Sequence record: NC_042128.1 | DNA length: 64,000 nucleotides | Reading direction: 5' to 3' (one strand) | Origin: Escherichia phage RCS47 | Shown here: positions 1,529-63,857 of the stretch, in pieces | Layout of the letters: every line of letters begins with the position of its first letter | Position numbering within the stretch: position 1 is the stretch's first letter | Notes under the pieces: generated by a model | Databases searched by the model: none | What the model saw: only the letters and a program-made list of their open reading frames with translations | What the model was told of the DNA's origin: nothing | Made by a program: the position numbers and the translations under genes

Positions 1529-1545
1529 TCTGCTCTAATAAATTT
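1529..1545 (+). promoter_or_regulatory. C1 repressor operator-like site (15/17 to ATTGCTCTAATAAATTT)
   Basis: TCTGCTCTAATAAATTT upstream of the icd-ant module. Confidence 0.55.
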
Positions 1546-1744
1546 GTATTTTTAAGTCGTGAATGCTATCTTTTCGCATCATATTGACCTTTTAATCGTT
1601 CAGGCTTATAGTTTCGCCGTCGTAGCAAATTCTGCGACCGGGTTTAGCAGCCTGAATGATTGTGCGGACAGCCGCAGATATCCGATATTGCGGTATTTTT
1701 GTGTCCGTAAAACCGCGTTACGCCCAAATTATGGTGGGGCGTGA

Positions 1745-1855
1745 TGGGGAGGCTTCGGCCTGCTGGTTTCACAATCGCCAGTCTGCTAACCCCGTCACGT
1801 CCTGCCACCTGTTTAGCAGCGGGTAGCAGGTTGTTAAACCTGATTGTGAGGCCGT
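1745..1855 (+). ncRNA. possible c4-like antisense regulatory RNA region of immI
   Basis: structured GC-rich non-coding stretch between operator and icd, the position where P1 encodes c4; boundaries not determinable. Confidence 0.25.
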
Positions 1856-1859
1856 AACT

Positions 1860-2081
1860 ATGGTTAATGCCAATCCTTGCGCACGCCAAGAATTCATCTG
1901 GCGTTTCTATTCCTGTAAAAAACACCACTATCACTTCGTTATCGCAGCAACAGAAGACGAAGCACGCTCTCAATTGCCTGATGGCCCCTGCATTTTTACT
2001 GCCCGTTTTTCAACTAACTCGCGCAATTCACTTAGTTACTGGAGCCTCCCCTTCTCTGCCGACGTTCAGGGGGGTTTATGA
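1860..2081 (+). CDS. icd: Icd-like cell-division inhibitor
   Basis: 73 aa; conserved EFIWRFYSC..HYHFVIA..TEDEARSQLPD motif shared with the second copy at 52517; ATGA-overlaps downstream ant. Confidence 0.7.
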   Translation: MVNANPCARQEFIWRFYSCKKHHYHFVIAATEDEARSQLPDGPCIFTARFSTNSRNSLSYWSLPFSADVQGGL

Positions 2082-3112
2082 AAACACCTCTCGTCACCCG
2101 TAATGAAATAGCCGAAGCGATCGCCTTGCATACAATCTGTATGCCGACACGGGAGATCCCCGGCGCAATTGCCAACTATTTCATGATAACCAGGCGTTTT
2201 TATACCCGAACAGATAAGGCTGTGATCAACAGGCTACTGATAGCCGAGATCAGGGATTATTTGATTGAACAAGGACGTCTACGTTACGCAACAGTGGCAG
2301 CAGAAATGAGAAAGGAGGCACATAGAATGACCGGTAATAATTTAAATGTTGAAAAACCAGCACCTGTTGCTTCAGCTACGCCAGCACCAGCCCTGAATGT
2401 CATCCCCAACACCGGAGACACAATCGACAGCCAAACATTGTTGAAGATGGTCAATGAGGCACGGAAATTATGTAGCGAAAAACCAGTTCGCAACAATGAT
2501 TTCATTGCCAGAGTTAAGGATGAGCTTGAAGGAGAAACCTACGAAATTTTCGTAGGTCAAAAAAACGGCGCAGAAATAGATATTATAACCATGACCTACA
2601 AACAAGCCCTGCGAGTTGCCGCGCGCGAGTCAAAAGCGGTCCGCCGTTCGCTGATCGACAAACTGGAAGAATTACAGCAGGCAAACTCCCCTACCCCATC
2701 GATCCCCCAGACATTACCAGAAGCCCTACGCCTGGCTGCCGAGTTAGCAGAACAGAAAATGCAGTTGGAACAACAGCTGGTGGCCGCAGCCCCTAAAGTC
2801 GATTTTGCCGACCGGGTATCAGTGGCCAATGGAATCCTGATCGGGAACTTTGCAAAGGTCGTTGGACTTAAGCAAAACGCCCTTTTCTCATGGTTGCGCC
2901 AGAATGGCATTCTCATGGCTTTTGGAGCGCGCAAAAACGTACCGCGCCAACAGTACATCAACGCCGGGTATTTCACGTTGAAAGAAGTGGTGCTGGATGA
3001 TGAAAATGGCTACCAGATACGGCTGACGCCCCAATTAACGGGTAAAGGCCAGCAGTGGTTAACTCGCAAGCTACTTGATGCTGGTTTGTTAAAACCAGTA
3101 GCAATAGGTTAA
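2078..3112 (+). CDS. ant: antirepressor Ant (KilAC C-terminal domain)
   Basis: C-terminal PQTLPEALRLAAELAEQK...GKGQQWLTRKLLDAGLL domain shared with KilA and Ant copy 2. Confidence 0.75.
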   Translation: MKTPLVTRNEIAEAIALHTICMPTREIPGAIANYFMITRRFYTRTDKAVINRLLIAEIRDYLIEQGRLRYATVAAEMRKEAHRMTGNNLNVEKPAPVASATPAPALNVIPNTGDTIDSQTLLKMVNEARKLCSEKPVRNNDFIARVKDELEGETYEIFVGQKNGAEIDIITMTYKQALRVAARESKAVRRSLIDKLEELQQANSPTPSIPQTLPEALRLAAELAEQKMQLEQQLVAAAPKVDFADRVSVANGILIGNFAKVVGLKQNALFSWLRQNGILMAFGARKNVPRQQYINAGYFTLKEVVLDDENGYQIRLTPQLTGKGQQWLTRKLLDAGLLKPVAIG

Positions 3113-3275: not shown

Positions 3276-4076
3276 ATGCAACAAACATTCAATGCGGATA
3301 TGAATATATCAAACCTTCATCAAAATGTCGATCCTTCAACCACTCTGCCCGTTATTTGTGGTGTTGAAATTACGACCGACCGCGCTGGCCGTTACAACCT
3401 TAATGCTCTACACAGAGCGAGCGGACTCGGTGCCCATAAAGCGCCAGCTCAATGGCTAAGAACGCTGTCAGCTAAACAGCTCATCGAAGAGCTTGAAAAA
3501 GAAACTATGCAGAATTGCATAGTTTCGTTCGAAGGCCGTGGCGGCGGCACTTTTGCCCATGAATTGCTCGCAGTGGAGTACGCTGGTTGGATTTCTCCCG
3601 CGTTTCGGCTGAAGGTAAACCAGACATTTATCGACTATCGAGCCGGAAGATTACAACCTGCTATTCCGCAGAGTCTCCCTGAAGCTCTCCGTTTGGCTGC
3701 CGACCTGGCAGAGCAAAAGCAACGGCTGGAACAAAAAATGCTTATGGATGCACCTAAAGTCGAATTCGCCGAACGCGTTGCTACCGCCAGCGGGGTTCTA
3801 ATCGGCAACTATGCCAAAGTGCTCGGTCTGGGCCAAAACTATCTCTTCACCTGGTTGCGTGATAACGGAATTCTGATCGCAACCGGTGAACGCAGGAACG
3901 TCCCCAAACAAGAATACATATCCCGTGGGTATTTCACCCTTAAAGAAACCGTGATCGATACAAGCAATGGAAGCAGGATTTCTTTCACGACTCGTATAAC
4001 CGGCAAAGGTCAGCAGTGGCTGATGAAGCGATTGCTTGATACTGGTGTGCTGGTACCTGTCGCGGCAACGCGCTAA
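3276..4076 (+). CDS. kilA: KilA (KilA-N domain plus KilAC domain)
   Basis: 266 aa; N-terminal KilA-N/APSES-like region and KilAC C-terminus; followed by repL as in the P1 lytic replicon. Confidence 0.7.
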   Translation: MQQTFNADMNISNLHQNVDPSTTLPVICGVEITTDRAGRYNLNALHRASGLGAHKAPAQWLRTLSAKQLIEELEKETMQNCIVSFEGRGGGTFAHELLAVEYAGWISPAFRLKVNQTFIDYRAGRLQPAIPQSLPEALRLAADLAEQKQRLEQKMLMDAPKVEFAERVATASGVLIGNYAKVLGLGQNYLFTWLRDNGILIATGERRNVPKQEYISRGYFTLKETVIDTSNGSRISFTTRITGKGQQWLMKRLLDTGVLVPVAATR

Positions 4077-4105: not shown

Positions 4106-4951
4106 ATGCTGGCTAAAGTCACTTTCCTGAGCTGTATAACGATGAGCGATTTTACTTTTTCTGGCTATGAATTGGCCTGCTTTGTAACACACTCCGGTCT
4201 ATCCCGTAGCGCCGGGCATATCCTGTCGCAATGTGCAAATCTCGCGGCAACAACCAGTGAATACTTCATTCACAAGCCTCACCGCCTGATCGCGGCAGAA
4301 ACTGGTTATAGCCAATCAACCGTCGTTCGTGCATTCCGTGAAGCTGTAAACAAAGGAATCCTGTCTGTAGAGATTGTTATCGGCGATCACCGTGAACGTC
4401 GCGCTAACCTGTACCGGTTTACACCATCCTTTTTGGCCTTCGCACAACAAGCCAAAAATGCGCTGATTGAAAGCAAATTAAAGATCTCTTCAGCGGCAAC
4501 CAAGGTTAAAGCTGTTCTCGCTAAGACATTGGCTTTATTTAATTTTTTATCCACATCCCCATGTCAAAATGATACCCCCTCCCCCTGTCAGGATGACGTG
4601 GCAATAAAGAATAAGAAGTCACAAGTTAAAAAAACAAAAAGATCAGTTTCCGACGGTGCCGGAACGTCCAGACTCAAAAAATTGACTTCGTGGATCGCTG
4701 AGGCAAAAGCAAAAGCTGACAATCTGCGGTTATCCAAAAAACGCGCTCAAAAACATGAGTTCAAGCAGAAAGTAGAGGCGGCAGCGCGGAAATATGCTTA
4801 CCTGAAGAACAAGCGTTCTCCTGATATTGGCGGGATATCAAACTTCGATAATCTGCCGCATTGCATGACGGTAAACGAAGCTCTTAATGCGGTTTTAGCC
4901 AAAAATAAAGATAACGAACAATGGGGTATACCGGCAGGATTCAGAGGGTGA
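4106..4951 (+). CDS. repL: lytic replication protein RepL
   Basis: 281 aa ORF directly downstream of kilA; size and position match P1 RepL. Confidence 0.6.
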   Translation: MLAKVTFLSCITMSDFTFSGYELACFVTHSGLSRSAGHILSQCANLAATTSEYFIHKPHRLIAAETGYSQSTVVRAFREAVNKGILSVEIVIGDHRERRANLYRFTPSFLAFAQQAKNALIESKLKISSAATKVKAVLAKTLALFNFLSTSPCQNDTPSPCQDDVAIKNKKSQVKKTKRSVSDGAGTSRLKKLTSWIAEAKAKADNLRLSKKRAQKHEFKQKVEAAARKYAYLKNKRSPDIGGISNFDNLPHCMTVNEALNAVLAKNKDNEQWGIPAGFRG

Positions 4952-4965
4952 TAGATTGCTCTAAT

Positions 4966-6330
4966 CTGGAGTCACCTGGCGTTTTCAGCGAAAAACCGCC
5001 GAGAACCCTCGCCCAATGCGGGCGGGGAGGAAAGGCGGAAAAGCCCGAAGGGCTTTAAAAATATTATTACGGTGTTAGCATAAAAACCTGTACCAATGAG
5101 CGGTGACTATGTTAAGAGCAACAAAAGTACGCATCTACCCGACACCAGAACAGGCTGAATTTATCAACGCCCAGTTCGGTGCAGTGCGTTTTGTGTACAA
5201 CAAAGCTCTGCATATCAAGAAACATTCTTACCAGCGGCACCGCGTAAATTTAAACCCGCGTAAAGACCTCAAACCACTGCTTGCAGTGGCGAAGAAATCC
5301 CGCCGGTATGGATGGCTTAAAGAATATGATTCTATTGCGTTGCAGCAGGCGGTAATTAACCTCGACGTGGCTTTTTCTAACTTTTTCAATCCGAAACTGA
5401 AAGCAGGTAAACCTACCTTTAAAAGTAAACACGGCAGACAATCTAGCTATCATTGTGTTGGCATAAAAGTCCTTGATGGTGCGATAAAAATACCGAAAAT
5501 CTTGCCGATTGAAGCGCGTTTACATCGTGAAATTACGGGAATGCTGAAAAGTATCACGTTGAGCCGCAGCGCAACCGGGAAATACTACGCGTCGTTACTC
5601 TGTGACGACGGGATGGAAGCGCCGGCAAAGCCCGCACTGATATCAAATGTGACAGGGCTGGATATGGGGCTGGCGCATTTTGTCATCAAATCGGACGGCA
5701 ATAAAATTGCCAGTCCCCGCCACCTAATCAATGCAAGTCGCAACCTGCGCCGGAAGCAGAAAGCACTGTCCCGTAAGAAAAAAGGGAGCGCAAACAGGCG
5801 CAAAGCCAGAATACAACTTGCAGCCGTTCACGAACGGGTAGCCAGTGCCCGTGCCGATTTCCAGCACAAGTTATCTCGCGCAATTGTTGACGAAAACCAA
5901 GCGGTAATTGTCGAAACATTGAAAACGGCAAATATGATGAAAAATCACCATCTGGCTCGTGCGATAGGCGATGCTGGATGGTCTGGATTCATCACAAAAC
6001 TGGAATACAAAGCAACAGAGAAAGGTGTGCATCTGGTGAAACTGGATCAATGGTTCGCCAGTTCGAAAACCTGCCACTGCTGCGGTCACAAAATGTCGGA
6101 GATGCCATTACATAAGCGCATCTGGCAGTGTCCAGAGTGTGGAGTTGAACATGACCGCGATATCAATGCGGCGCTCAACATCAAACGCAAGGGCATACTG
6201 GAATTACAAGCGGCGGGACTCGTCGTTTCTGCCCATGGAGGCCAGCGTAAATCCGTCACACAGACGGTTGCGGCTTAAGAAGTGGGAAGCCTCGCCCGAC
6301 AGGGCGGGGAGCAGTCACTATGGATTTTCT
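4966..6330 (+). mobile_element. solo TnpB element (IS200/IS605 family, no tnpA), approximate ends
   Basis: tnpB ORF flanked by related subterminal hairpins CCTCGCCC-N4-GGGCGGGGA at 5011-5032 and 6291-6311. Confidence 0.5.
5103..6278 (+). CDS. tnpB: TnpB (OrfB_IS605; RuvC-like nuclease with C-terminal zinc finger)
   Basis: 391 aa; zinc finger CHCCGH...CPECG near C-terminus; typical TnpB N-terminus MLRATKVRIYPT. Confidence 0.85.
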   Translation: MTMLRATKVRIYPTPEQAEFINAQFGAVRFVYNKALHIKKHSYQRHRVNLNPRKDLKPLLAVAKKSRRYGWLKEYDSIALQQAVINLDVAFSNFFNPKLKAGKPTFKSKHGRQSSYHCVGIKVLDGAIKIPKILPIEARLHREITGMLKSITLSRSATGKYYASLLCDDGMEAPAKPALISNVTGLDMGLAHFVIKSDGNKIASPRHLINASRNLRRKQKALSRKKKGSANRRKARIQLAAVHERVASARADFQHKLSRAIVDENQAVIVETLKTANMMKNHHLARAIGDAGWSGFITKLEYKATEKGVHLVKLDQWFASSKTCHCCGHKMSEMPLHKRIWQCPECGVEHDRDINAALNIKRKGILELQAAGLVVSAHGGQRKSVTQTVAA

Positions 6331-6616
6331 TTGGCGCGGTCTGGCCATTAGGGGTCATGTTTGCTGCAACGTTTCTTCTGATGTGGATATTCACCCTTCC
6401 AGGTGATTTCTATAGAAAAAAAGCCAGACATTGATACACCCGCTGCGGTGTGCTTGAGGCTATCTGCTTCAGGCATTCCCCGAAAAGCAGATAGAAGAAA
6501 GCCCCAGTAAACATTATGCGTCCCGCACAACGCTTAACATTAACCGGGGCCATACCTATGCTTAGCGTGCTTAGATTAATCCTCTCCTCTGTCAAGGAGC
6601 AAGGAATTTTTTACTG

Positions 6617-7249
6617 CTATGCCGCCTTTCCAGTTATGGATTCAGCGACCAGAACAACCCCATGCTTACTTCGATCTGGGTGTTCACTCCATATCTCGGA
6701 TTCAGGAATACTTACCCCGTCATAGCAAACACGTTCGCCGTCAAACGGGTAATACTGAGCGGCATCGGTGTCGAGGATAAACACTTTTAGCTCGGAAGAG
6801 CGACGGGCGATATGTTGCCAAAGAGCTTTTCCACCTTCGTATTGCTCATTATCACTGAGCAAAACAACACCAGCTTTTGAGGCTACGGTTTCGTAAACAA
6901 AAGTAGCTAAACCGACATCCCGGACAGTTCCATCAACCACGATACCTTCAATCTGGGCAACATCGCTATCCTCCCAGAACTTCCTTACCAGTACGCCTTC
7001 AAGCTGCGGGCGACGTTGAAGTTCAAGAGTAGCGACAACCTTATGCCGCATATCACCATCGATAACAGAAGGCGCAGCCTCTATTACAGCTGCAAATGGG
7101 GTTTTGGAATCCCATATAACCTGGTAAAGCACACCCTGGATGGTAACTCCGTCCAGGATCGAAAATCGACGAGCGACAGTACCCGGGGAGTACGACATTG
7201 GAATCACAGCCATTTTAGAGTCCCCCTTTAACAGTACAGGCACAAACAT
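6617..7249 (-). CDS. hypothetical late protein (alternative start at 7213)
   Basis: 210-aa ORF at the start of the minus-strand late block. Confidence 0.4.
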   Translation of the reverse strand: MFVPVLLKGDSKMAVIPMSYSPGTVARRFSILDGVTIQGVLYQVIWDSKTPFAAVIEAAPSVIDGDMRHKVVATLELQRRPQLEGVLVRKFWEDSDVAQIEGIVVDGTVRDVGLATFVYETVASKAGVVLLSDNEQYEGGKALWQHIARRSSELKVFILDTDAAQYYPFDGERVCYDGVSIPESEIWSEHPDRSKHGVVLVAESITGKAA

Positions 7250-49479: not shown

Positions 49480-50673
49480 GTGACCTGGGACGATCACAAG
49501 AAGAATTTTGCTCGCCTGGCGCGAGATGGTGGTTACACCATCGCACAGTATGCCGCCGAGTTTAATCTTAACCCTAATACCGCACGTCGTTATCTCCGTG
49601 CCTTCAAAGAAGACACCAGGACTGTGGACAGCCGCAAGCCAAATAAGCCAGTCAGGAAGCCACTAAAAAGCATGATCATTGATCACTCTAATGATCAACA
49701 TGCAGGTGATCATATTGCGGCTGAAATGGCAGAAAAACAAAGAGTTAATGCTGTTGTCAGTGCCGCAGTCGAGAACGCGAAGCGCCAAAATAAGCGCATA
49801 AATGATCGTTCAGATGATCATGACGTGATCACCCGCGCCCACCGGACCTTACGTGATCGCCTGGAACGCGACACCCTGGATGATGATGGTGAACGCTTTG
49901 AATTCGAAGCTGGCGATTACCTGATAGATAACGTTGAAGCGCGGAAGGCCGCGCGCGCTATGTTGCGTCGTTCCGGAGCTGATGTTCTGGAAACCACTCT
50001 TCTGGAAAAGTCTCTTTCTCATCTCCTTATGCTGGAGAACGCCAGGGATACGTGTATTCGCCTGGTGCAGGAAATGCGCGATCAGCAAAAAGACGATGAT
50101 GAAGGTACTCCGCCTGAATACCGTATCGCGAGCATGCTAAACAGCTGTTCCGCGCAGATAAGCAGCCTGATCAACACCATTTACAGCATCCGGAATAACT
50201 ATCGAAAAGAAAGCCGGGAGGCGGAAAAGCACGCTTTGTCTATGGGGCAAGCTGGCATTGTTAAGCTGGCATACGAACGAAAGCGTGAAAATAACTGGTC
50301 AGTGCTGGAAGCAGCTGAATTCATCGAGGCGCATGGCGGGAAAGTGCCGCCCCTGATGCTGGAGCAAATCAAAGCCGATCTGCGTGCTCCTAAGACCAAT
50401 ACCGATGATGAGGAAAGGCAAACTGCCGTCGGTGGCCCTTCTCTTGAAGATCTGGACAAAGTTGCGCGAGAACGGGCCGCCAACCGCCGCGCCGATGCCG
50501 CATTGTGGATTGAGCAACGTAGGGAAGAAATCGCCGATATCGTTGATACAGGCGGTTATGGAGATGTTGATACTGAAGGTGTATCAAACGACCCATGGCT
50601 GGAACAAGACCTGGACGAAGACGAGGAGGAAGACGAAGAAGTTACCCGCAAGCTATACGGGGATGATGATTAA
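49480..50673 (+). CDS. pacA: terminase small subunit PacA
   Basis: GTG start with AAGGAAG SD; contains the pac hexamer cluster; 397 aa; followed by PacB. Confidence 0.8.
49673..49860. promoter_or_regulatory. pac packaging site (clusters of TGATCA/G hexamers with Dam GATC sites)
   Basis: four hexamers at 49673-49715 and three to four at 49803-49858 inside pacA. Confidence 0.7.
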
Positions 50674-52157
50674 TGGCCAGAAGTTGCGTAACGGATCCAC
50701 GTTGGCGCGAGCTGGTGGCGCTATATCGTTATGACTGGATTGCGGCCGCTGATGTTTTGTTCGGCAAAACACCTACCTGGCAGCAGGATCTGATTATTGA
50801 GTCTGTGCAGGAACAGGGTAGCAAGACATCTGTTTCGTCTGGTCACGGTACCGGGAAATCAGACATGACTTCTATCATGATCATGTTGTTCATAATCATG
50901 TATCCCGGTGCCCGAGCCATTATCGTTGCGAACAAAATTCAGCAGGTAATGACCGGTATATTCAAGTACATCAAGATAAACTGGGCTACTGCCACCAGCC
51001 GTTTTCCATGGCTTGCTGATTATTTTGTTCTGACAGAAACCGCTTTCTATGAGGTTACTGGTAAAGGTGTATGGACTGTAGTACCGAAGGGCTTTCGTCT
51101 GGGAAGTGAAGAAGCTCTCGCCGGTGAACACGCAGATCATCTTCTGTATATTATCGATGAAGCCTCCGGTGTCAGTGATAGAGCTTTCGGTATCATCACC
51201 GGTGCTCTTACCGGACAGGATAACCGCATCTTATTGCTGTCACAGCCTACACGCCCAAGCGGCTATTTCTACGATACTCACCATAAACTGGCCAAGCGTC
51301 CTGGTAACCCTGATGGCGTTTATACGGCGATCACGCTTAACAGTGAGGAATCACCGCTGGTAACGCCAGCATTTATCAAAATGAAGCTGGCGGAGTACGG
51401 CGGGCGTGATAACCCTATGTACATGATTAAGGTACGCGGGCTATTCCCTAAATCACAGGACGGCTTCCTTCTTGGACGTGATGAGGTTGAACGTGCGACG
51501 CGGCGGAAAGTCAAGATTGCCAAAGGATGGGGCTGGCTTGCATGTGTGGACGTTGCTGGTGGTACAGGACGGGATAAGTCCGTTATCAATATCATGATGG
51601 TGTCCGGCCAGCGAAATAAACGCCGTGTAATCAACTATCGAATGCTGGAATACACAGACGTTACAGAAACGCAGCTTGCCGCCAAAATTTTCGCAGAATG
51701 TAATCCTGAGCGATTCCCCAATATCACCATAGCGATAGACGGCGATGGCCTGGGTAAAGCAACGGCGGATCTGATGTACGAGTATTATGGTATTACCGTA
51801 CAGCGTATACGCTGGGGTAAAAAGATGCATAGCCGTGAAGATAAGAGCCTGTACTTTGATAAACGTGCTTATGCCAATGTTCAAGCCGCAGAGGCCGTAA
51901 AATCTGGTCGTATGAGACTGGATAAGGGTAATGAAACTATTGAGGAAGCGTCGAAAATCCCTGTAGGGATTAACTCCGCAGGTCAATGGAAGGTGATGAG
52001 TAAGGAGGATATGAAGAAAAAACTCAACCTGCACTCACCAGACCATTGGGATACATATTGTTTCGCTATGCTGGCGGATTATGTTCCCCAGGATGAAGTG
52101 CTTAGCGTCGAAGACGAAGCGCAGGTTGATGAAGCTCTGTCATGGCTTAATGAATGA
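50673..52157 (+). CDS. pacB: terminase large subunit PacB
   Basis: 494 aa; TAATG overlap with pacA; terminase ATPase/nuclease architecture. Confidence 0.8.
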
Positions 52158-52160
52158 ATA

Positions 52161-52177
52161 TTTGCTCTAATAAATTG
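52161..52177 (+). promoter_or_regulatory. C1 operator-like site (15/17)
   Basis: TTTGCTCTAATAAATTG immediately after pacB. Confidence 0.6.
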
Positions 52178-52379
52178 TGTTTTTTAGCTACCGATGTTAC
52201 ATTGAACCTGACCTCTTGCGCCTTGAGGCATTTTCGGTTTATGCTTATCAGGCACCTCATTAAAACGGGTGCCGGGATTGAGACCCCGGATAATGTCAAA
52301 GGCGACACAGACGCCGAAAGCGTCTTTTTTTGTGTCATGCCATCGCACAGCCATACGTAGCGTTTAGCTCCGAAATCAA

Positions 52380-52500
52380 TGGTAGTGCTGGCTGGGCTGC
52401 CGAAAGGCAGGCCGGTTCCCTTTGACGCCGGTAGTCTCAACCCAGTCAGTGCTACCGCCATTGAGATTGAGACCTCACGCGGTAGCTCCTTAACTTAGTC
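52380..52500 (+). ncRNA. possible c4-like antisense RNA region of the second icd/ant module
   Basis: structured non-coding region with 8-bp stem GCTACCGC...GCGGTAGC between operator and icd-like gene. Confidence 0.25.
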
Positions 52501-52516
52501 AAAGGAGGCTGCCATT

Positions 52517-52738
52517 ATGGCTACTGTCCCTACCCCAACTCATCCTGAATTCATCTGGCGCTTCTATTCCTGCCAGAAACGTCACTATCACTTCGTTATT
52601 GCACCGACAGAAGATGAGGCCCGTTCTCAGCTTCCTGACGCTCCCTGCATTTTCTCTGCCCGCTTTTCCACTGATTCGCGCAACTCTCTCAGTTACTGGT
52701 GCCTCCCTGTTAACGCTTCTGCTCAGGAGGGACTATGA
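52517..52738 (+). CDS. icd: Icd-like cell-division inhibitor, second copy
   Basis: 73 aa; same conserved motifs as the 1860 copy. Confidence 0.7.
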   Translation: MATVPTPTHPEFIWRFYSCQKRHYHFVIAPTEDEARSQLPDAPCIFSARFSTDSRNSLSYWCLPVNASAQEGL

Positions 52739-53850
52739 GAACGTCATTAGTCACCCGTGAAGAAATGATTGAGGCAATTGAACAGCACACATCCTGTATC
52801 AGTACCAGGGATATACCGGGCGTTATTGCCAACTACTTCATGATCACCAAACAACTTTACCGGAGAAAGGACAAGAACGCTGTTCACCGCATTCTGTTGT
52901 CTGATATCCGCGAATACCTGCTCGAACAGGGGCATCTGAATTACGCAACCGTCGCAGCCGAAACACGCAAGGAGGCACACAGAATGAAAGCAACTAACGT
53001 TAAATCAGAAAAAACTCATGCACCTTCAGTTCAGGAATCGGAGCTGGTGGTTGTTCAGAATCAGTCTGATGAAATTCCCGTTCTGGAATGGCTGGGAGTG
53101 CGTGTAGTGACAACTAAGATCCTTGCTAAGGGGTATGGGACAGATGCGGATAACATCAAGAAGAACTTTTCCCGTAATGCTGAACGTTTTTGTGAAGGCA
53201 AGCATTTCTATAAAGTTATTGGAGATGATTTGAACAATTTGCGAGTGACTTTAAGTAACTCACAAAATCCTATCTCTCCTAAAGCCCGCTCACTCATCCT
53301 CTGGACGGAACGCGGCGCAGCCCGCCACGCTAAAATGATCGAAACCGATCAGGCATGGGCATTCTTTGAAAAACTGGAAGACAGCTACTTCCGACAAAAA
53401 GAACAGCAACCGGTTGCAATCCCCCAAACATTACCAGAAGCCCTACGCCTGGCTGCCGAACTGGCTGAACAAAAGCAGCTTCTGGAACAGAAAGCCCACC
53501 AGCTAAATCAGCAGCTGGTGGCCGCCGCTCCTAAAGTCGATTTTGCCGACCGGGTATCAGTAGCTAAAGGGATCCTGATTGGGAATTTTGCAAAGGTTGT
53601 TGGACTTAAGCAAAACGCGCTGTTTGCCTGGTTACGGGAGAACGGCATCCTGATAGCGTCCGGTGGACGTAAAAATGTGCCGTTCCAGCAGTACATCAAC
53701 GCGGGGTATTTCACGGTGAAAGAAGTGGTGCTGGATGATGAAGATGGCTACCAGATACGGTTGACGCCTCAATTAACGGGTAAAGGCCAGCAGTGGTTGA
53801 CGCGTAAACTGCTCGATGCTGGCTTGTTAAAACCGGTGGCGGCTGAATAA
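52735..53850 (+). CDS. ant: antirepressor Ant, second copy, divergent central domain
   Basis: 371 aa; N-terminus and KilAC C-terminus conserved with Ant 2078-3112; central region differs. Confidence 0.75.
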   Translation: MRTSLVTREEMIEAIEQHTSCISTRDIPGVIANYFMITKQLYRRKDKNAVHRILLSDIREYLLEQGHLNYATVAAETRKEAHRMKATNVKSEKTHAPSVQESELVVVQNQSDEIPVLEWLGVRVVTTKILAKGYGTDADNIKKNFSRNAERFCEGKHFYKVIGDDLNNLRVTLSNSQNPISPKARSLILWTERGAARHAKMIETDQAWAFFEKLEDSYFRQKEQQPVAIPQTLPEALRLAAELAEQKQLLEQKAHQLNQQLVAAAPKVDFADRVSVAKGILIGNFAKVVGLKQNALFAWLRENGILIASGGRKNVPFQQYINAGYFTVKEVVLDDEDGYQIRLTPQLTGKGQQWLTRKLLDAGLLKPVAAE

Positions 53851-53857
53851 TGGAAGA

Positions 53858-53879
53858 ATGCCCGGTTGATGCCGGGCAT
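53858..53879. terminator. bidirectional terminator between ant copy 2 and c1
   Basis: hairpin ATGCCCGG-TTGAT-GCCGGGCAT. Confidence 0.55.
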
Positions 53880-53882
53880 AAT

Positions 53883-54734
53883 TTATTGCGCGCTTTCGGG
53901 GTTGTCGTTTACTGGCTGCCCCTTCTTGGTTTTACGGCTGCGCGTAACTGATGCGGCTGACTTAACCTTTTTCTCTTCGCGAGTGATGGCAATTTGTTTT
54001 TTTACATTTTCAATATCTGCCAGGCGATATATTTTTGCTTGCGGCCAGCGGTCGCAGATGATCGGTTCTATGGAGTCATAAAGGCTAAATTTTGCTTTTT
54101 CGAATTCACCGTTGATGATAATTCCATCACGGAGAGTTTCATCGCAGATAAACACGCCACACAGTGGCACATGGTAACTAACTGATTTACCATCATTGTA
54201 GTTAGGGCTACTGGAAATGTAGTGGACGCGCAGCATTGTTTCGCTAAAGCCGTGTACGCGCATACGGAATTTTTCATCCTCCGGGTACTGCTTCATTAGC
54301 TCTTTTGTTGCTTCAAGGTTCTCTATGTATTTCGCACTGTGCTCATTGATCCCTGCGCTTTTTTGGATGCGAATGTCCTTATCAATCAGATGAATAATGC
54401 GGCCAGCGGTCATGTTGACGCTGTTCACAGCTTCTGTCTGATAAGTCGTAACCTTACGCACACCGCGAAGGATGTTAGGCACAGGATATAAAATAGTCTT
54501 TGGGATATTGAGGTCTGGGTACTGTTCCAGTTCCCGCGCCATTAAAGTCCATTTATCAATTTCAGCCTGAATGCTGTCTGTTTCTTTGAACGGTAGAACG
54601 ACAACCGGGCGTACAGGACGACCGTCGCTGGCTGTATCAACGTGTTGGGCGCGTGCAACAGCTTTTTTCAGAAAGAGATCCCTGAAGCTGACGAACTCCT
54701 GGTACAGTTGTTCGCCGTAGACATAATTTATCAT
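53883..54734 (-). CDS. c1: C1 repressor of lysis
   Basis: 283 aa; operator sites matching ATTGCTCTAATAAATTT throughout the window; position next to coi and lox. Confidence 0.8.
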   Translation of the reverse strand: MINYVYGEQLYQEFVSFRDLFLKKAVARAQHVDTASDGRPVRPVVVLPFKETDSIQAEIDKWTLMARELEQYPDLNIPKTILYPVPNILRGVRKVTTYQTEAVNSVNMTAGRIIHLIDKDIRIQKSAGINEHSAKYIENLEATKELMKQYPEDEKFRMRVHGFSETMLRVHYISSSPNYNDGKSVSYHVPLCGVFICDETLRDGIIINGEFEKAKFSLYDSIEPIICDRWPQAKIYRLADIENVKKQIAITREEKKVKSAASVTRSRKTKKGQPVNDNPESAQ

Positions 54735-55054: not shown

Positions 55055-55196
55055 AATTATGCCTCACTGTATTGACAACACAGAGCCTGAAGCTCTGACC
55101 TACTGTTTCACCCATGATCCATGCTGGGGTAATCTAACAACATTGCGCTGTGTGTAAGATGAGCAATGCATAGGGAAGGTGCGAACAAGTTCCTGA

Positions 55197-56222
<1,026 letters not shown>

Positions 56223-56321
56223 AAACCGGAAATAACGCCAGAAATGGTGGAAAAAATAGCCTAAACAGGCTGATTCGATGTGTTTGCGGGAAAAAAATCG
56301 GCCCAGCTCCGCGAAATTTTA

Positions 56322-57090
56322 GGTAATGACTCCAACTTATTGATAGTGTTTTATGTTCAGATAATGCCCGATGACTTTGTCATGCAGCTCCACCGATTTT
56401 GAGAACGACAGCGACTTCCGTCCCAGCCGTGCCAGGTGCTGCCTCAGATTCAGGTTATGCCGCTCAATTCGCTGCGTATATCGCTTGCTGATTACGTGCA
56501 GCTTTCCCTTCAGGCGGGATTCATACAGCGGCCAGCCATCCGTCATCCATATCACCACGTCAAAGGGTGACAGCAGGCTCATAAGACGCCCCAGCGTCGC
56601 CATAGTGCGTTCACCGAATACGTGCGCAACAACCGTCTTCCGGAGCCTGTCATACGCGTAAAACAGCCAGCGCTGGCGCGATTTAGCCCCGACGTATCCC
56701 CACTGTTCGTCCATTTCCGCGCAGACGATGACGTCACTGCCCGGCTGTATGCGCGAGGTTACCGACTGCGGCCTGAGTTTTTTTAAATGGCGGAAAATCG
56801 TGTTGAGGCCAACGCCCATAATGCGGGCGGTTGCCCGGCATCCAACGCCATTCATGGCCATATCAATGATTTTCTGGTGCGTACCGGGTTGAGAAGCGGT
56901 GTAAGTGAACTGCAGTTGCCATGTTTTACGGCAGTGAGAGCAGAGATAGCGCTGATGTCCGGCGGTGCTTTTGCCGTTACGCACCACCCCGTCAGTAGCT
57001 GAACAGGAGGGACAGCTGATAGAAACAGAAGCCACTGGAGCACCTCAAAAACACCATCATACACTAAATCAGTAAGTTGGCATCATCACC
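56322..57090 (-). mobile_element. IS1 element (769 bp) nested in the right end of IS5 copy 1
   Basis: IS1 terminal IRs GGTAATGACTCCAACTTATTGAT...ATCAGTAAGTTGGCATCATCACC; 8-bp target duplication AAATTTTA (56314-56321 and 57091-57098). Confidence 0.9.
56337..57035 (-). CDS. insAB: IS1 transposase, fused InsAB' encoded without frameshift
   Basis: continuous 232-aa ORF; A-run is A7 (plus-strand T7 at 56778-56784) where I recall A6C in canonical IS1. Confidence 0.85.
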
Positions 57091-57209
57091 AAATTTTAAT
57101 CAGCGAGTCAACTTGGGAAGAAATGACCTGCTTATTCGCACCTTCCTTAGATTAACGCTGCGTGATATTTAATCTCAAATGATAATAAAGATGCGTTATC
57201 ATTTACATT

Positions 57210-57223
57210 TTGATAATGATCAC
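57210..57223 (+). promoter_or_regulatory. FNR-like box TTGATAATGATCAC upstream of the reductase operon
   Basis: 9/10 match to TTGAT-N4-ATCAA in AT-rich promoter region. Confidence 0.45.
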
Positions 57224-57352
57224 AAATATTTATATTTGTGCTAAGCACCAAATCTCACTTGATCATAATCAATAATGATGAATTACTAATTCTTTATGAT
57301 TACCTCATATGTCGTATTAATAATAATTATGAAAACAATGTGAGAAAATAAA

Positions 57353-59788
57353 ATGAAAGAGTTGTTAAATACAACAATCTCTCGACGTGATGCGGTGACT
57401 ACAACTGCAAAATTGGGAGCTGCCGTTGCACTAAGCAACGCCATCACTTTGCCTTTTTCCACAACCGTCAGGGCCGAAACATCGGATACCGGTAAAACCA
57501 ACGAAAATGCTGAAACCGTCAGGCATAGTGCTTGCCTGGTGAATTGCGGAAGTCGTTGTCCATTAAAAGTTATCGTAAAAGACGGACGCATTGTTCGTAT
57601 TGAAGCCGAGGACGCGAAGGACGACTCTGTTTTTGGTGAACATCAGATTCGACCTTGCCTACGTGGTCGTTCCAGCCGCTGGCGTGTTTATAGCCCTGAC
57701 CGGATTAAATATCCGATGAAACGTGTTGGTAAACGCGGAGAAGGGAAATTTAAACGTATTTCATGGGATGAGGCCACAGCCTTTATTGCCGCTGAATTAA
57801 AGCGCGTTTCTGAAAAATATGGAAATGAAGCAATCTATTTTAATTATCAATCTGGCGCGTATTATCATAACCAAGGAACACCCGCATGGAAAAGGTTATT
57901 GAACCTGAATGGCGGTTTTCTGCAGTATTACAATAATTACTCAAACGCTCAAAACTTTACCGCCACATCTTACACGTATGGTGCTACAGGAGTACAGTTT
58001 GCCAGTCATTTTAGCCAGATTGCGCATTCTGATCTTGTGGTTTTTTTTGGTCTGAATTTATCTGAGACTCGGATGTCCGGTGGTGGGCAAGTTGAAGAAC
58101 TGCGCCGTGCGCTGGAAATATCAGGCGCCCGGGTGATTATCATCGATCCGCGCTATACAGACTCTGTTGTTACAGAACATGCTGAATGGTTACCAATTCG
58201 CCCTACAACCGATGCTGCACTGGTAGCAGCTATTGCACACACGTTGATAAAAGAAAATCTGATCGACGAAGAACGAGTCAATACTTATTGTGTCGGTTAT
58301 GATCGTAGCACCCTTCCGGAAACGGCGAAACCAAATGCCAGTTATAAAGACTATGTTCTGGGTAACGGTGATGACGGCGTCGAAAAAACACCTGAATGGG
58401 CGGCAGATATCTGTGGCATCCCGGCTATTCGTATTCGCCAGTTGGCACGTGAAATGGCCGAAGCTCGGGCCTGTTTCATTGCCCAGGGATGGGGGCCACA
58501 GCGTCATGCAAATGGTGAACAGACTTCCAGAGCGGTTCAGATACTTCCTGCCCTGACGGGTCATTTTGGATTGCCAGGAACCAACAATGGGAACTGGACA
58601 TACGGAACACCTTATGGTGTTCCTGCTCTGCCGATTGGTGAAAATCCCGTTAAGGTGTCAATCCCCTGCTATCTGTGGACAGATGCGATTCAAAGTCCGG
58701 AAAAAATGACAGCCACCACTATGGGGGTTAAAGGCGCGGATAAACTGAAAACCGGTATTAAACTGTTCTTCAACCAGGCCGGGAATGCACTTCTGAATCA
58801 ACATGGAAATATCAATCGTACACGCAAAATACTTGAAGATGACAGCCTGTGCGAAACTATCGTGGTTATTGATAATCATATGACTGCCAGTGCCCGCTTT
58901 GCCGATATCCTTCTTCCAGAAACTAGCTACTTAGAAGCCGAGGATCTGGTGGACAGTTCCTATGCAGCCGGTTCTCACCATTACATGATTGCAATGCAAA
59001 AAACGATCACACCGATGTGGGAAGTACGCAGTACCTATGATATCTGTGCAGATATTGCGGGGCATCTTGGGGTAAGAGAGCGTTTTACTGAGGGGCGTAC
59101 TCAGGCAGAGTGGATGGCGAAGCATTACGGACAAGTTAAAGAGAAGCGATCATATCTGCCTGAATGGGAAGTTGCAATGAATATGGGGGTTATCGATCAG
59201 CAAGGTACTCGTGATGAGGACAGTATTATCCTTGCTGATTTCCGCCATGATCCGGTTGCCAGTCCACTGACGACACCTTCCGGGAAGATTGAGATTTACT
59301 CGCACACTCTGGCGGAACTGGCTAAAGCCTGGACACTACCGGAAGGAGATCGCATTCCGGCTGTTCCTGAATTTTGTATAGTGACAGAGTCCCATCTGAA
59401 CAAGAGTCTGACAGCAAAGTATCCGCTACAGATGAGCGGTTTTCACACCAAAGGTCACACGCACTCAACATATGCCAGTGTGCTGATGCTGCATGAAGCG
59501 GTACCGGATGAAGTCTGGATCAACCCGATAGACGCCAGCGTGCGTCAGTTGAAATCAGGCGATATGGTCCATGTATTCAACGATCGCGGTGTGGTGGAGA
59601 TCCCCTGCAAGGTGACACAGCGCATCCTGCCGGGCGTGGTGGCAATGCCGCAAGGCGCGTGGACCCGACTGGACAGCAACGGTGTGGACGTGGGTGGATG
59701 TATTAACACATTGACCAGCCACCTGCCGTCGCCGCTGGCGAAAGGGAACCCGCAACATACCAACCTGGTTGAAATCAAACGCGCTTAG
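57353..59788 (+). CDS. DMSO-reductase-family molybdoenzyme catalytic subunit (DmsA/YnfE-like)
   Basis: 811 aa; RR signal region; Fe-S motif CLVNCGSRCP; conserved MGD-enzyme blocks and C-terminal LAKGNPQHTNLVEI. Confidence 0.9.
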   Translation: MKELLNTTISRRDAVTTTAKLGAAVALSNAITLPFSTTVRAETSDTGKTNENAETVRHSACLVNCGSRCPLKVIVKDGRIVRIEAEDAKDDSVFGEHQIRPCLRGRSSRWRVYSPDRIKYPMKRVGKRGEGKFKRISWDEATAFIAAELKRVSEKYGNEAIYFNYQSGAYYHNQGTPAWKRLLNLNGGFLQYYNNYSNAQNFTATSYTYGATGVQFASHFSQIAHSDLVVFFGLNLSETRMSGGGQVEELRRALEISGARVIIIDPRYTDSVVTEHAEWLPIRPTTDAALVAAIAHTLIKENLIDEERVNTYCVGYDRSTLPETAKPNASYKDYVLGNGDDGVEKTPEWAADICGIPAIRIRQLAREMAEARACFIAQGWGPQRHANGEQTSRAVQILPALTGHFGLPGTNNGNWTYGTPYGVPALPIGENPVKVSIPCYLWTDAIQSPEKMTATTMGVKGADKLKTGIKLFFNQAGNALLNQHGNINRTRKILEDDSLCETIVVIDNHMTASARFADILLPETSYLEAEDLVDSSYAAGSHHYMIAMQKTITPMWEVRSTYDICADIAGHLGVRERFTEGRTQAEWMAKHYGQVKEKRSYLPEWEVAMNMGVIDQQGTRDEDSIILADFRHDPVASPLTTPSGKIEIYSHTLAELAKAWTLPEGDRIPAVPEFCIVTESHLNKSLTAKYPLQMSGFHTKGHTHSTYASVLMLHEAVPDEVWINPIDASVRQLKSGDMVHVFNDRGVVEIPCKVTQRILPGVVAMPQGAWTRLDSNGVDVGGCINTLTSHLPSPLAKGNPQHTNLVEIKRA

Positions 59789-59801
59789 GGAGTGATCCGC
59801 A

Positions 59802-60428
59802 ATGAAACAGTATGGTTTTTACGTTGACTCCTCGCGTTGCTCTGGCTGCAAAACCTGCCAGGTAAGCTGCAAGGATAATAAAGATTTGGATGTCGGACCG
59901 AAGCTGCGCCGCGTGTATGAATATGGTGGCGGTAGCTGGGTGAAAGAAGGTGAAAGCTGGCACAACAATACCTTCACTTACTATTTGTCGATTGCCTGCA
60001 ATCACTGCGATGAACCGACCTGTGTGGCAGGTTGCCCAACCGGCGCGATGCACAAACGCGAAGAAGATGGCCTGGTGCTGGTGGATGACAGTGTTTGTGT
60101 GGGCTGTCGTTACTGCGAAATGCGCTGCCCTTATGGTGCACCGCAGTTTGATACACAAGCTAAAGTGATGCGTAAGTGTGATGGTTGCCTTGACCGACTG
60201 GAGAAAAATCTCCCGCCTATTTGTGTTGAGTCCTGTCCACAGCGAGCTTTGGATTTTGGTCCTATCGACGAATTGCGGGCGAAATATGGCAGTGAAAATG
60301 AAATCGCACCGTTACCTGCCGCTTCGTTTACGCATCCTAACCTGATAATTAAACCGCATCCGCTGGCGCGACCTACGGGCGACAAAGAAGGGGCGATCAT
60401 GAACATTCGGGAGGTGCGCCATGCATGA
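59802..60428 (+). CDS. DMSO-reductase-family Fe-S subunit (DmsB-like)
   Basis: four Cys clusters; N-terminus MKQYGFYVDSSRCSGCKTCQVSCKD typical of DmsB. Confidence 0.9.
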   Translation: MKQYGFYVDSSRCSGCKTCQVSCKDNKDLDVGPKLRRVYEYGGGSWVKEGESWHNNTFTYYLSIACNHCDEPTCVAGCPTGAMHKREEDGLVLVDDSVCVGCRYCEMRCPYGAPQFDTQAKVMRKCDGCLDRLEKNLPPICVESCPQRALDFGPIDELRAKYGSENEIAPLPAASFTHPNLIIKPHPLARPTGDKEGAIMNIREVRHA

Positions 60429-61197
60429 GTTACCACTGGTCTTTTTCACCGTATTTACCCAGAGCGCAGTGGGGGCGTTTATTCTGCTGCTGATTGGCGG
60501 TGCCATGGGATTAATTGAGCCACGTCGTATGGCGATTGGTCTCTTTTCGGTGATGTGCTTGTTTGGTGTGGGTGTTGTGCTTGGCACCATTCATGTCGGG
60601 CAGCCGCTGCGAGCGCTGAATATGCTATTCCGTGTCGGCAGTTCTCCTATGAGTAACGAAATCGTGCTTTCGGCATGTTTTGCCGCAGCCGGAGGACTGG
60701 GATCTCTCGGTTTGCTGTTAAATCGCGGTGGTGCAATGCTTTGTAAAGTACTGGTATGGCTGGCCGCTGCGATTGGAGTCGTGTTTATCTTTGCCATCCC
60801 GCGTATTTACCAGTTGGCAACGGTAGCGACCTGGAGTACCTCTTACACCACCATGATGATGGTGCTAACTGCACTTATCGGTGGCGGCATGTTGGCGGCG
60901 TTGTTTGGCGTTCGTCGTCTGGGGCTGCTGGTAAGTGTACTGGCGATTCTGGCGAGTTTCTGTTTGCGTCCGGGTTATATTTCCACGCTAATGAGTGCTG
61001 ATGGCGTTATTACCGCTGCGCAGTCCACCTGGTTTACCGCTCAGGCCATTCTGTTGGCGCTGGGTGTTATTGGGGCACTGCTCTATGCACGCATGAAAAG
61101 TGGGCAAGCTGTGCTGGCGATGACTGCACTGGTGGTTATTGCTGCTGAACTGGTTGGTCGGATCGGTTTCTACAACCTCTGGACCATCCCTATGTAA
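60421..61197 (+). CDS. DMSO-reductase-family membrane anchor subunit (DmsC-like)
   Basis: 258 aa polytopic membrane protein, overlapping B subunit stop. Confidence 0.8.
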   Translation: MHELPLVFFTVFTQSAVGAFILLLIGGAMGLIEPRRMAIGLFSVMCLFGVGVVLGTIHVGQPLRALNMLFRVGSSPMSNEIVLSACFAAAGGLGSLGLLLNRGGAMLCKVLVWLAAAIGVVFIFAIPRIYQLATVATWSTSYTTMMMVLTALIGGGMLAALFGVRRLGLLVSVLAILASFCLRPGYISTLMSADGVITAAQSTWFTAQAILLALGVIGALLYARMKSGQAVLAMTALVVIAAELVGRIGFYNLWTIPM

Positions 61198-61251
61198 CCT
61201 GTGAGTGGCCGGTGTTTGCCCGGCCACCTCTGCTTTCAGGAGTGTTTAATC

Positions 61252-61848
61252 ATGCCTTCCCCAGCCGTACTGGTGCGTATTCTTGGTGCCCTGTTTTACT
61301 ATTCTCCCACGCGTCCTGAAGTTCGGGCACTGTTTGACTGTCTGCCGACATTGGATGAGATATACCCCTGGCGCGATCCCCGCCAGGTGGCTGAATTATG
61401 CTCTGACTGGTCAATCCCGGATGAGGAGCAGCATCTCTGGCAATTTTCTGTTCTTTTTGAAGGACAGGGTGAAATGCCAGCACCACCCTGGGGTTCGGTA
61501 TATCTCGAAAAAGATAATCTGTTGATGGGGGACAGCACTGCCGAGTACCGGAAGTTCCTTCGTGATCAGGGAATGACGTTTGATTCCTGTATAAATGAAC
61601 CGGAAGATCAGTTTGGCCTGATGCTGCTTGCCTGTAGCGCCTTGCTGGCAGAGGGGAAAGAACGCGCAGCGAATCAATTGCTGGAAACGCATTTGCTGCC
61701 GTGGGGATATCGTTATCTGGAGTTATTACAGCGCAACCCTGTCAGTGCGTTTTACGCGAAGTTGGCGCAGATTGCGACACTGTTTCTGCAGGATTATCAG
61801 CAGCAACAGGCACTAAATCCTCCAACCAAACGGCTCTTTCTTGGATGA
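61252..61848 (+). CDS. dmsD: Tat proofreading chaperone DmsD/TorD family
   Basis: ATG 61252 with AGGAG SD; motifs LGALFYY and PPWGSVYL. Confidence 0.8.
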   Translation: MPSPAVLVRILGALFYYSPTRPEVRALFDCLPTLDEIYPWRDPRQVAELCSDWSIPDEEQHLWQFSVLFEGQGEMPAPPWGSVYLEKDNLLMGDSTAEYRKFLRDQGMTFDSCINEPEDQFGLMLLACSALLAEGKERAANQLLETHLLPWGYRYLELLQRNPVSAFYAKLAQIATLFLQDYQQQQALNPPTKRLFLG

Positions 61849-62375
61849 GTAAGTCAGAAAATTATTATCAGGAGTTAATGTCTCATCGGTATGTTAGCCG
61901 ACGTGGGCTATTTCGGGCCTTTGTCAGCGCGGCACGCCCGGTAACAACACCGATATTACCTGTGCACTCCTTACCTCCCGGCGCGTTACCTGATGCGCAG
62001 TTTCGTGTGCAGTGCACGCAGTGTGATTTGTGTATTAATGCCTGTCCCATGGGCATTCTCAACCGGCATGAAGATGGCTATCCGCAATTGGTGATTGAAT
62101 TTGCCAGTTGTGACGGCTGCGGCTTATGTATAGCTGCATGTTCCACTGAGGCATTACGTCCGCAGGCTCGTTTCGACACCGGATTGCGTCCCGTTTTTAA
62201 AGCAAATTGTGTTAATCCGGTGCGCAGTTGCAAACAGTGTGTCGATCTATGCCCACTTCAGGCATGCTCAATCAACGAAAGCGGAATGCCTGTAATCGAT
62301 GCTGCAATATGTAATGGTTGCGGTGAATGTTTGGTTCAGTGTGGTTATGACGCGGTAAAACTTGAGATGGTGTGA
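61845..62375 (+). CDS. ferredoxin-type protein with four 4Fe-4S motifs (NapF-like)
   Basis: ATGA overlap with dmsD; four C-x2-C-x2-C-x3-CP-type clusters. Confidence 0.75.
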   Translation: MSKSENYYQELMSHRYVSRRGLFRAFVSAARPVTTPILPVHSLPPGALPDAQFRVQCTQCDLCINACPMGILNRHEDGYPQLVIEFASCDGCGLCIAACSTEALRPQARFDTGLRPVFKANCVNPVRSCKQCVDLCPLQACSINESGMPVIDAAICNGCGECLVQCGYDAVKLEMV

Positions 62376-62521
62376 GGGGCAGGGTGGAACACTCTTTGCG
62401 TTAACAGATTTCACTTGATGACCTGGAAATTATTATTTCCATGAATAAGTATTCTTATCCGCATGGAAAATATGCGCACAATTATCCTGCGATAATAATG
62501 AAAATCATCTGCTTTTTTTAG

Positions 62522-63717
<1,196 letters not shown>

Positions 63718-63840: not shown

Positions 63841-63857
63841 TAATTTATTAGAGCAAT
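63841..63857 (-). promoter_or_regulatory. C1 operator-like site (16/17, inverted)
   Basis: TAATTTATTAGAGCAAT. Confidence 0.6.

Follow-up and report, generated by a model that had tools for sequence, protein, structure and literature searches.

In phages P1 and P7, a single immunity region immI is annotated (Oc4, a1, b1, c4, a2, b2, icd and ant1/ant2), located in P1 beside kilA-repL. The C4 RNA is released from the leader of this operon by RNase P, and binding of C4 leads to Rho-dependent termination before ant. Phage P22 has a second immunity region that encodes an antirepressor, immI, with sar RNA and ant. The present study concerns Escherichia phage RCS47 (NC_042128.1), a P1-like (Punavirus) phage-plasmid, of which a stretch of 64,000 nucleotides was analysed; this whole stretch is called the window, and positions are counted 5' to 3' on the given strand. 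The window displays two modules of the immI type, whose features lie on the + strand unless stated otherwise. Module 1 (1529-3112) is the classical immI, followed by kilA and repL. Module 2 (52161-53850) is situated between pacB and c1. With a probability of roughly three in four, we regard module 2 as a complete and intact second immI-type cassette, i.e. an antirepressor operon that is held off by the repressor C1 and by an antisense RNA.

Related arrangements have been described elsewhere. In Gifsy-1, short IsrK stops at the terminator, and the read-through mRNA is translationally silent (Hershko-Shalev et al., 2016, PMC4825925). Short IsrK activates the read-through mRNA in trans, which has been shown experimentally only in that system, and a processed stable RNA is found downstream of IsrK (PMC4825925). 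Two c4-icd regions have been reported for a D6-like plasmid (PMC6799933), and phage D6 itself has two as well. The cassette between pacB and c1 was noted by Venturini et al. (2019, PMC6906374) only as "two hypothetical orfs plus ant"; the same paper lists icd-ant homologues at another site in pSvP1. Our literature search found no paper on the RNA genes, the specificity or the function of the second cassette; subscription journals were largely outside its coverage, and an earlier description there is possible.

Anatomy of the cassette between pacB and c1

The leader of module 2 contains two RNA elements. The first is an IsrK-family leader RNA at 52252-52330 (Rfam RF01394, 60.2 bits against a gathering score of 50, full-length match); this upstream target element scores as isrK (60 bits), compared with 22 bits for c4-a1b1. 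The second is a C4 antisense RNA of a second specificity at 52375-52462 (Rfam RF01695, 75.4 bits against a gathering score of 45, model positions 1-87 of 87). Pairing sites were assigned with the P1 annotation of Oc4, a1, b1, c4, a2 and b2 as reference. C4 carries two recognition elements, b' CCUUUGAC in the second hairpin loop (52419-52426) and a' GUCUCAA at the 3' junction (52434-52440), and both are fully complementary to their own four targets, with exact matches of 7 and 8 nucleotides. The complements of a' are a1 (52278-52284), in the loop of the IsrK hairpin, and a2 (TTGAGAC, 52467-52473); those of b' are b1 (52295-52302) and b2 (GTCAAAGG, 52498-52505). Between b1 and C4, an intrinsic terminator hairpin (52309-52325) followed by a T run marks the 3' end of the IsrK match. 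The element b2 overlaps the Shine-Dalgarno sequence of the icd-like gene (AAGGAGG, 52502-52508); an earlier note on this DNA had proposed mapping complementarity to the ribosome-binding regions of ant.

The C4 RNA of module 2 folds with -46.5 kcal/mol (z = -5.5), and minimum free energy and centroid structures agree. Its architecture is that of P1/P7 c4, with a long closing stem around two hairpins; in the predicted fold, no base pairs form at the a' junction, and the hairpin loop of b' stays open for the most part. The stem differs from P1/P7 c4 in sequence, and the Rfam alignment displays these changes as compensatory. RefSeq (annotated by the Prokaryotic Genome Annotation Pipeline, PGAP) places the coding sequence of a 39-amino-acid 'ash family protein' atop the C4 gene (52379-52498), which is a mis-annotation; genome annotation misses the RNA genes. 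This open reading frame matches Pfam Phage_ASH with 28.3 bits, and the Phage_ASH family may largely have been built from translated RNA genes of the C4/CI type.

Module 2 begins with a putative C1 operator, TTTGCTCTAATAAATTG (52161-52177), located 4 nucleotides past the stop codon of pacB (50673-52157). It matches the P1 operator consensus ATTGCTCTAATAAATTT at 15 of 17 positions (two mismatches), and a search with this consensus yields 14 operator-like sites within the window, with 0.35 expected by chance. The site is placed relative to the promoter as in P1 Oc4/Op51. Candidate promoter A (52175-52203) comprises a -35 element TTGTGT (52175-52180), a 17-nucleotide spacer and a TG-extended -10 element TACATT (52198-52203); its -35 element overlaps the operator, as seen for P1 P2c4/P51a. 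Candidate promoter B (52216-52245) comprises TTGCGC, an 18-nucleotide spacer and TATGCT. Its predicted start near 52252 coincides with the point where the IsrK-family match begins (52252 aligns to position 1 of the model), and promoter B may be the analogue of P1 P1c4/P51b.

Downstream of the leader follow two coupled genes. The icd-like gene (52517-52738) encodes a protein of 73 amino acids that matches NCBIfam NF033153 phage_ICD_like with 49.8 bits (threshold 25). Its stop codon overlaps the start of ant by ATGA at 52735-52738. The ant gene (52735-53850) encodes 371 amino acids and was assigned by Pfam domains and alignment: a P1-Ant1-type N-terminus (residues 1 to about 90) is followed by ORF6N (117-201) and by KilAC (PF03374, residues 259-360, 109.1 bits against a cut-off of 25.3). 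A search of PDB sequences with this Ant gave no match. Within ant, Met84 at 52984 is a putative internal start of the Ant2 type (Shine-Dalgarno AAGGAGG at 52969-52975, seven nucleotides, then ATG). Its context closely resembles the ant2 start of P1, with an identical Shine-Dalgarno sequence and equal spacing to the ATG; long and short forms of Ant are therefore likely. Between the stop codons of ant and c1 lies a GC-rich hairpin (53858-53879, no strand assigned), a probable bidirectional terminator. The c1 repressor gene follows on the - strand (53883-54734, NCBIfam phage_rep_C1, 611.6 bits). The C1 protein displays 99.3% identity to C1 of P1 and is presumed to be both the target of Ant and the regulator at the module 2 operator.

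Two C4 specificities in one genome

Module 1 comprises a C1 operator-like site (1529-1545, two mismatches to the consensus), a c4-a1b1 target element (1606-1658, Rfam), a C4 RNA (RF01695, 1727-1812, 69.6 bits against a gathering score of 45), icd (1860-2081) and ant (2078-3112). It is followed by kilA (3276-4076, +), encoding KilA-N and KilAC domains, and repL (4106-4951). Module 1 is 95.6% identical to the immI of P7 and 98.9% identical to phage phi456 over its full length. Its c4 sequence is identical to P7 c4 (a' CUGCUAA, b' UCACAAUC); P1 c4 has a' CUGUCAA and b' UCACUAAC. Overall, the immI of P1 and P7 matches module 1 with 93-96% over 95-100% of its length, whereas in module 2 only the 3' end of ant is matched by megablast (about 86% over about 330 nucleotides).

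The earlier note had read operator, structured leader, icd-like gene and ant as occurring twice, at 1529-3112 and 52161-53850, and all of these elements are indeed present there. Its statement that the two Icd-like proteins share a conserved core agrees with an invariant EFIWRFYSC...ARF in both; the module 2 protein displays 71-74% identity to the Icd of module 1, P7 and P1 (71% to module 1). Likewise, its view of the two Ant proteins as alike at both ends with unrelated centres holds, with 61% identity in the N-terminal 90 or so residues, 15% in the centre and 85% in the C-terminal part; by BLASTP, the central segments of the two modules display no meaningful similarity beyond the approach to the common C-terminus. 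Three KilAC-bearing proteins had been counted, and Pfam detects KilAC in both Ants and, as the third, in KilA, with ORF6N in the second Ant only and KilA-N in KilA only. A recent duplication of module 1 as the origin of module 2, which the earlier note had dismissed, is rejected here too: the C4 stem and both recognition elements differ, and so do Icd and the centre of Ant at the identities given. With regard to the leaders, a comparison with P1/P7 c4 identifies module 1 c4 as that of P7, whereas module 2 differs in a', in b' and in the stem.

The domain structure of the second Ant gives rise to an alternative explanation. The RNA gate could operate as proposed below while the second Ant does not act on a P1-type C1, but acts via ORF6N on another repressor (e.g. 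that of a co-resident prophage, cf. the trans-acting Gifsy/Fels antirepressors) or on DNA itself; the cassette would then be a means of cross-talk between elements and not of P1 immunity. ORF6N is absent from the Ant of P1 and P7, and relatives swap the Ant centre freely (62-100% identity), sometimes carrying a P1-type centre at the same locus. The IsrK-type leader is also common to Gifsy-1, where the antirepressor-like AnrP raises expression of the antiterminator gene antQ. However, the N-terminus and the KilAC C-terminus of the second Ant are P1-Ant-like at 61% and 85% identity, with the same nested Ant2 start. In addition, the cassette stands behind a C1 operator and adjoins c1, and C1 is nearly invariant among these elements. 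We consider a different target unlikely, and C1 remains the preferred target of the second Ant.

Each C4 RNA matches its own targets. At the level of single elements, duplexes of module 1 C4 with its own a2 and b2 reach -7.4 and -8.6 kcal/mol, and those of module 2 C4 with its own a2 and b2 reach -7.6 and -9.8 kcal/mol. Cross-module duplexes range from -0.3 to +1.2 kcal/mol, which is weaker than P1 versus P7 (-1.2 to -3.6 kcal/mol). These element-level duplexes and a position-based count of pairing were used in place of whole-RNA duplex folding, since folding of full C4 against whole target regions was uninformative: C4 unfolds, and similar energies result for all pairs. As Citron and Schuster in 1990 and Heinrich, Velleman and Schuster in 1995 are said to have found, P1 and P7 are heteroimmune owing to few differences in c4. 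The two modules are therefore further apart than this known, functionally distinct pair. Judged by sequence, C4 of module 2 and its targets appear orthogonal to the P7-type c4 of module 1 within one genome. Dual or hetero-immune control, as suggested in the earlier note, thus gains support at this level, with cross-module duplexes close to 0 kcal/mol; two C4 systems that do not cross-pair would amount to two independent RNA locks in the genome.

Covariation and distribution among relatives

Using both Icd proteins as queries, 159 related loci were collected from IMG/VR, giving 62 distinct leaders in 16 a'/b' classes. In a MAFFT alignment of all 62 leaders, a' was out of register between backbone types, and each backbone subset was analysed in its own register. 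Pairing sites were read at fixed alignment columns and not via a complement search. A complement search that allowed G-U pairs gave spurious upstream sites (e.g. TTGAGGC, in the promoter region), and exact-match and fixed-column results were relied on. For module-2-type backbones (24 leaders, 5 classes), no mismatch is found at the 720 positions tested, and 21 of the pairs are G-U. Among the P1-type leaders (38, in 11 classes), pairing fails only at a single b1 column, which is constant. Between classes that are not cognate, the median is 3 mismatches.

At the pacB-c1 locus, five specificities are found. Four of them are the combinations of a' GUCUCAA or GUUCCAA with b' CCUUUGAC or CCUUUUGC, and the fifth has a third C4 backbone with a' AGGCCAA and b' CCUUGGAC. 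Complementarity at four sites is maintained without mismatch across the five classes at this locus, which requires selection on RNA pairing. The segment of promoter and operator is nearly constant at pacB-c1, and the segment from a1 to b2 is swapped as a block. Two of the IMG/VR loci (L039, L046) carry a module-2-type leader and C4 (b' CCUUUUGC, a' GUUCCAA) at the classical immI, upstream of kilA-repL; blocks of RNA specificity therefore move between the two loci.

The earlier note had presented module 2 as a departure from the layout of P1, in which immI is single and sits beside kilA-repL, with c1 directly after pacB. This description of P1 is accurate: the stop codons of pacB and c1 are 24 bp apart in P1, as in SJ46, and in the window about 1.72 kb stand exactly in place of the P1 spacer. 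The absence of the module from P1 and P7 at this site stands. That it should be unusual does not, as about half of natural P1-like plasmids carry the cassette and its presence is already in print. The full cassette (query coverage of 80% or more) is present in 302 PLSDB plasmids, including pTZ20_1P (MN510447, 96.2%), and the empty junction, as detected by a joined-flank probe, in 317. Among 5,426 complete E. coli genomes, 288 hold the full cassette, and the plasmid pLH10-b-1-B (NZ_CP190037.1) matches at 100%. The deposited phages JL22 and vB_EcoM-673R5 carry it too. The 3' end of c1 (window 53883-54182) is matched at about 99-99.7% in cassette-bearing records, whereas the flanks in empty-junction records reach only 88-95%. 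It thus appears that the module spreads together with the neighbouring c1 allele, as a single haplotype block.

That laboratory P1 and P7 do without the cassette would be compatible with a neutral, hitch-hiking insert or with a degenerating remnant that no longer serves a function. Truncated versions exist as well: in phi456 only the 3' end of ant is left, behind IS1, and in 673R5 ant is annotated as shortened. Yet both open reading frames are intact here and in hundreds of records, and a functionless passenger is hard to reconcile with the covariation, i.e. 0 mismatches over four sites and five classes at pacB-c1. We regard this explanation as very improbable; the cassette is real and probably functional.

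Cassettes occur at several places in related genomes, and at least three sites were mapped (the classical immI, pacB-c1, and the equivalent of window 29926/29984). The third site is empty in RCS47. In two IMG/VR loci (L087, L088), a c4-icd-ant cassette is inserted there, flanked on one side by sequence matching window 27336-29926 and, in L088, also by sequence matching 29984-31875. Further cassettes in relatives have flanks that are absent from the window. One locus (L012, IMGVR_UViG_2698536372_000019) has a tandem duplicate cassette of the same specificity at pacB-c1, and its contig holds at least four cassettes (the two of L012, L082 and L087). Another (L074) has two head-to-head cassettes with differing b' elements, and in L139 two C4 genes are 1 kb apart.

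Such multiple copies in plasmid prophages, at several sites, could also point to a plasmid-maintenance or abortive device, in which C4 restrains a growth-inhibiting Icd (and Ant); division would then stop upon loss of the plasmid or entry of a competitor that titrates C4. The P1 annotation lists Icd as an inhibitor of cell division, and IsrK-driven expression in Salmonella results in growth arrest. A long-lived C4, however, would fit poorly with post-segregational killing, and the P7 record describes the block of division by Icd as reversible. The constant linkage to an antirepressor and a C1 operator points instead to control of lysis and lysogeny. A maintenance function appears improbable to us, and we retain the reading of module 2 as an antirepressor operon under C1 and C4.

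Some further features of the window deserve mention. An IS5-bounded insertion of about 8.5 kb lies inside imcA (55174-63717); homology to P1 breaks off at 55173 and continues from 63718, and the two parts overlap by 4 bp, which resembles a target duplication. The insertion contains IS5 transposase genes (55242-56222 and 62590-63570), IS1 (56337-57035, - strand) and a dimethyl sulfoxide (DMSO)-reductase-like operon (molybdopterin oxidoreductase, 4Fe-4S subunit, DmsC-like anchor, chaperone and ferredoxin). Owing to this insertion, imcB-coi-c1 is cut off from the distal coi promoter with its C1 operator (63841-63857), which could alter regulation of immC. Directly after repL lies a TnpB-like open reading frame of the IS200/IS605 type (5103-6278); in the near-identical plasmid pLH10-b-1-B, a coding sequence of the TnpB family is annotated elsewhere, upstream of the terminase genes. 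After the TnpB-like frame, a sok antitoxin RNA is detected by Rfam (6448-6621, 68.5 bits), and a locus of the hok/sok type is therefore present.

Possible function and comparison with known systems

Based on these data, which establish sequence anatomy, family membership, complementarity, covariation and prevalence, we hypothesize the following mechanism, in which the promoters, the processing of the RNA, the interaction of C1 and Ant and the immunity phenotype are what we infer. Transcription would start just past pacB, at the promoter overlapped by the C1 operator, and probably at a second promoter about 50 nucleotides further on. The leader would first form the IsrK-like element with the decoy sites a1/b1, ending in the intrinsic terminator. 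Read-through transcripts would hold the C4 RNA, which by analogy with P1 may be excised as a stable RNA of about 77 nucleotides. The exposed a' and b' of C4 would pair with a2 and b2 in the leader, with b2 covering the icd ribosome-binding site. A block of icd translation would also shut off the coupled ant, probably with premature termination in addition, as in P1. The operon would thus be silenced in two ways, with C1 acting at the operator and the cassette's own C4 RNA having the larger share. Without the cognate C4, or after its titration, Icd and Ant would be made, and Ant, likely in long and short forms, would inactivate C1 and favour lytic growth. The IsrK-like a1/b1 RNA is possibly an anti-antisense element. 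The most likely function of module 2 is therefore that of a second, orthogonal RNA lock on a C1 antirepressor.

Three observations weigh against this proposal. A consensus promoter scan of the module 2 leader gave no promoter above threshold; both promoters are treated as candidates for this reason, and because they were read by eye. The central ORF6N domain of Ant has no counterpart in P1 Ant, so the target could differ. Finally, among 38 isolate genomes with two to four cassettes, none had cassettes at different sites that shared both a' and b', although one tandem pair at pacB-c1 in this survey of co-residence did share its specificity. Since every site largely has a backbone lineage of its own, the lack of shared specificities argues only weakly for selection against redundancy.

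If there are two independent locks, a lysogen should be immune to relatives of either specificity, and a cassette-bearing element should be capable of Ant expression in lysogens without the second C4. The lysogen is thus predicted to have broader immunity, and the element to be able to derepress residents in which the second C4 is missing. In a wider and more tentative view, to which we give a little less than even credence, immunity in natural P1-like and D6-like phage-plasmids follows a combinatorial code of RNAs. Each genome would carry one to four C4/IsrK-icd-ant cassettes; its set of C4 RNAs would decide which relatives are excluded, and incoming Ant cassettes would decide which residents are displaced. 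In that case, the second cassette would serve phage-plasmids with the same C1 as a weapon in their competition, in attack as well as in defence. Such a code would draw on the 16 or more a'/b' specificities observed, which recombination may have shuffled, both between the two halves (a' and b') and from one locus to another. P1 immunity was worked out on laboratory strains with one immI, and some wild P1-like plasmids carry three or four cassettes; resistance genes are found on many of these P1-like plasmids. Should the cassettes function as suggested by their sequence, combinations of small RNAs, and not the nearly invariant C1, would set the immunity groups. This would bear on which phage-plasmids coexist, displace or induce one another.

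Among the described systems, phage D6 orf83/orf82 is very similar in the RNA part. Leader, C4 and icd start of D6 display 94% DNA identity to window 52251-52579, with the same a' GUCUCAA. In contrast, b' of D6 is CCUUUUGC and not CCUUUGAC, the genomic position is another one, and the D6 antirepressor, annotated as Rha/Roi/KilA-like, is only 19% identical to the module 2 Ant. The sar RNA of P22 differs from C4 in being a true cis-antisense transcript without the C4 fold.

Salmonella Gifsy-1 isrK-orf45-anrP has in common with module 2 an IsrK-family RNA with an intrinsic terminator and a small open reading frame coupled to an antirepressor-like gene. Its output is different, namely expression of the antiterminator AntQ, and it lacks a C1 operator and a P1-type C1. 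The CI RNA of P4 (targets seqA/seqC), as far as it is cited in PMC4825925, is likewise an immunity antisense RNA derived from the leader of the operon that it controls. CI, however, acts by transcription termination of replication genes and not of an antirepressor.

The immI of P1 and P7 is alike in the order of its elements: C1 operator, a1/b1, C4, a2/b2 (at the ribosome-binding site of icd), then icd with ant coupled to it and, within ant, a nested Ant2 start. The C4 RNAs belong to one Rfam family, and the Icd core, the Ant N-terminus and the KilAC C-terminus are homologous. The locus differs (sim-kilA as opposed to pacB-c1), as do the C4 stem and the a'/b' code, and module 2 has an upstream element of the isrK type and an ORF6N centre in Ant. 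The cassette is built entirely from known parts and has partly been noted in print.

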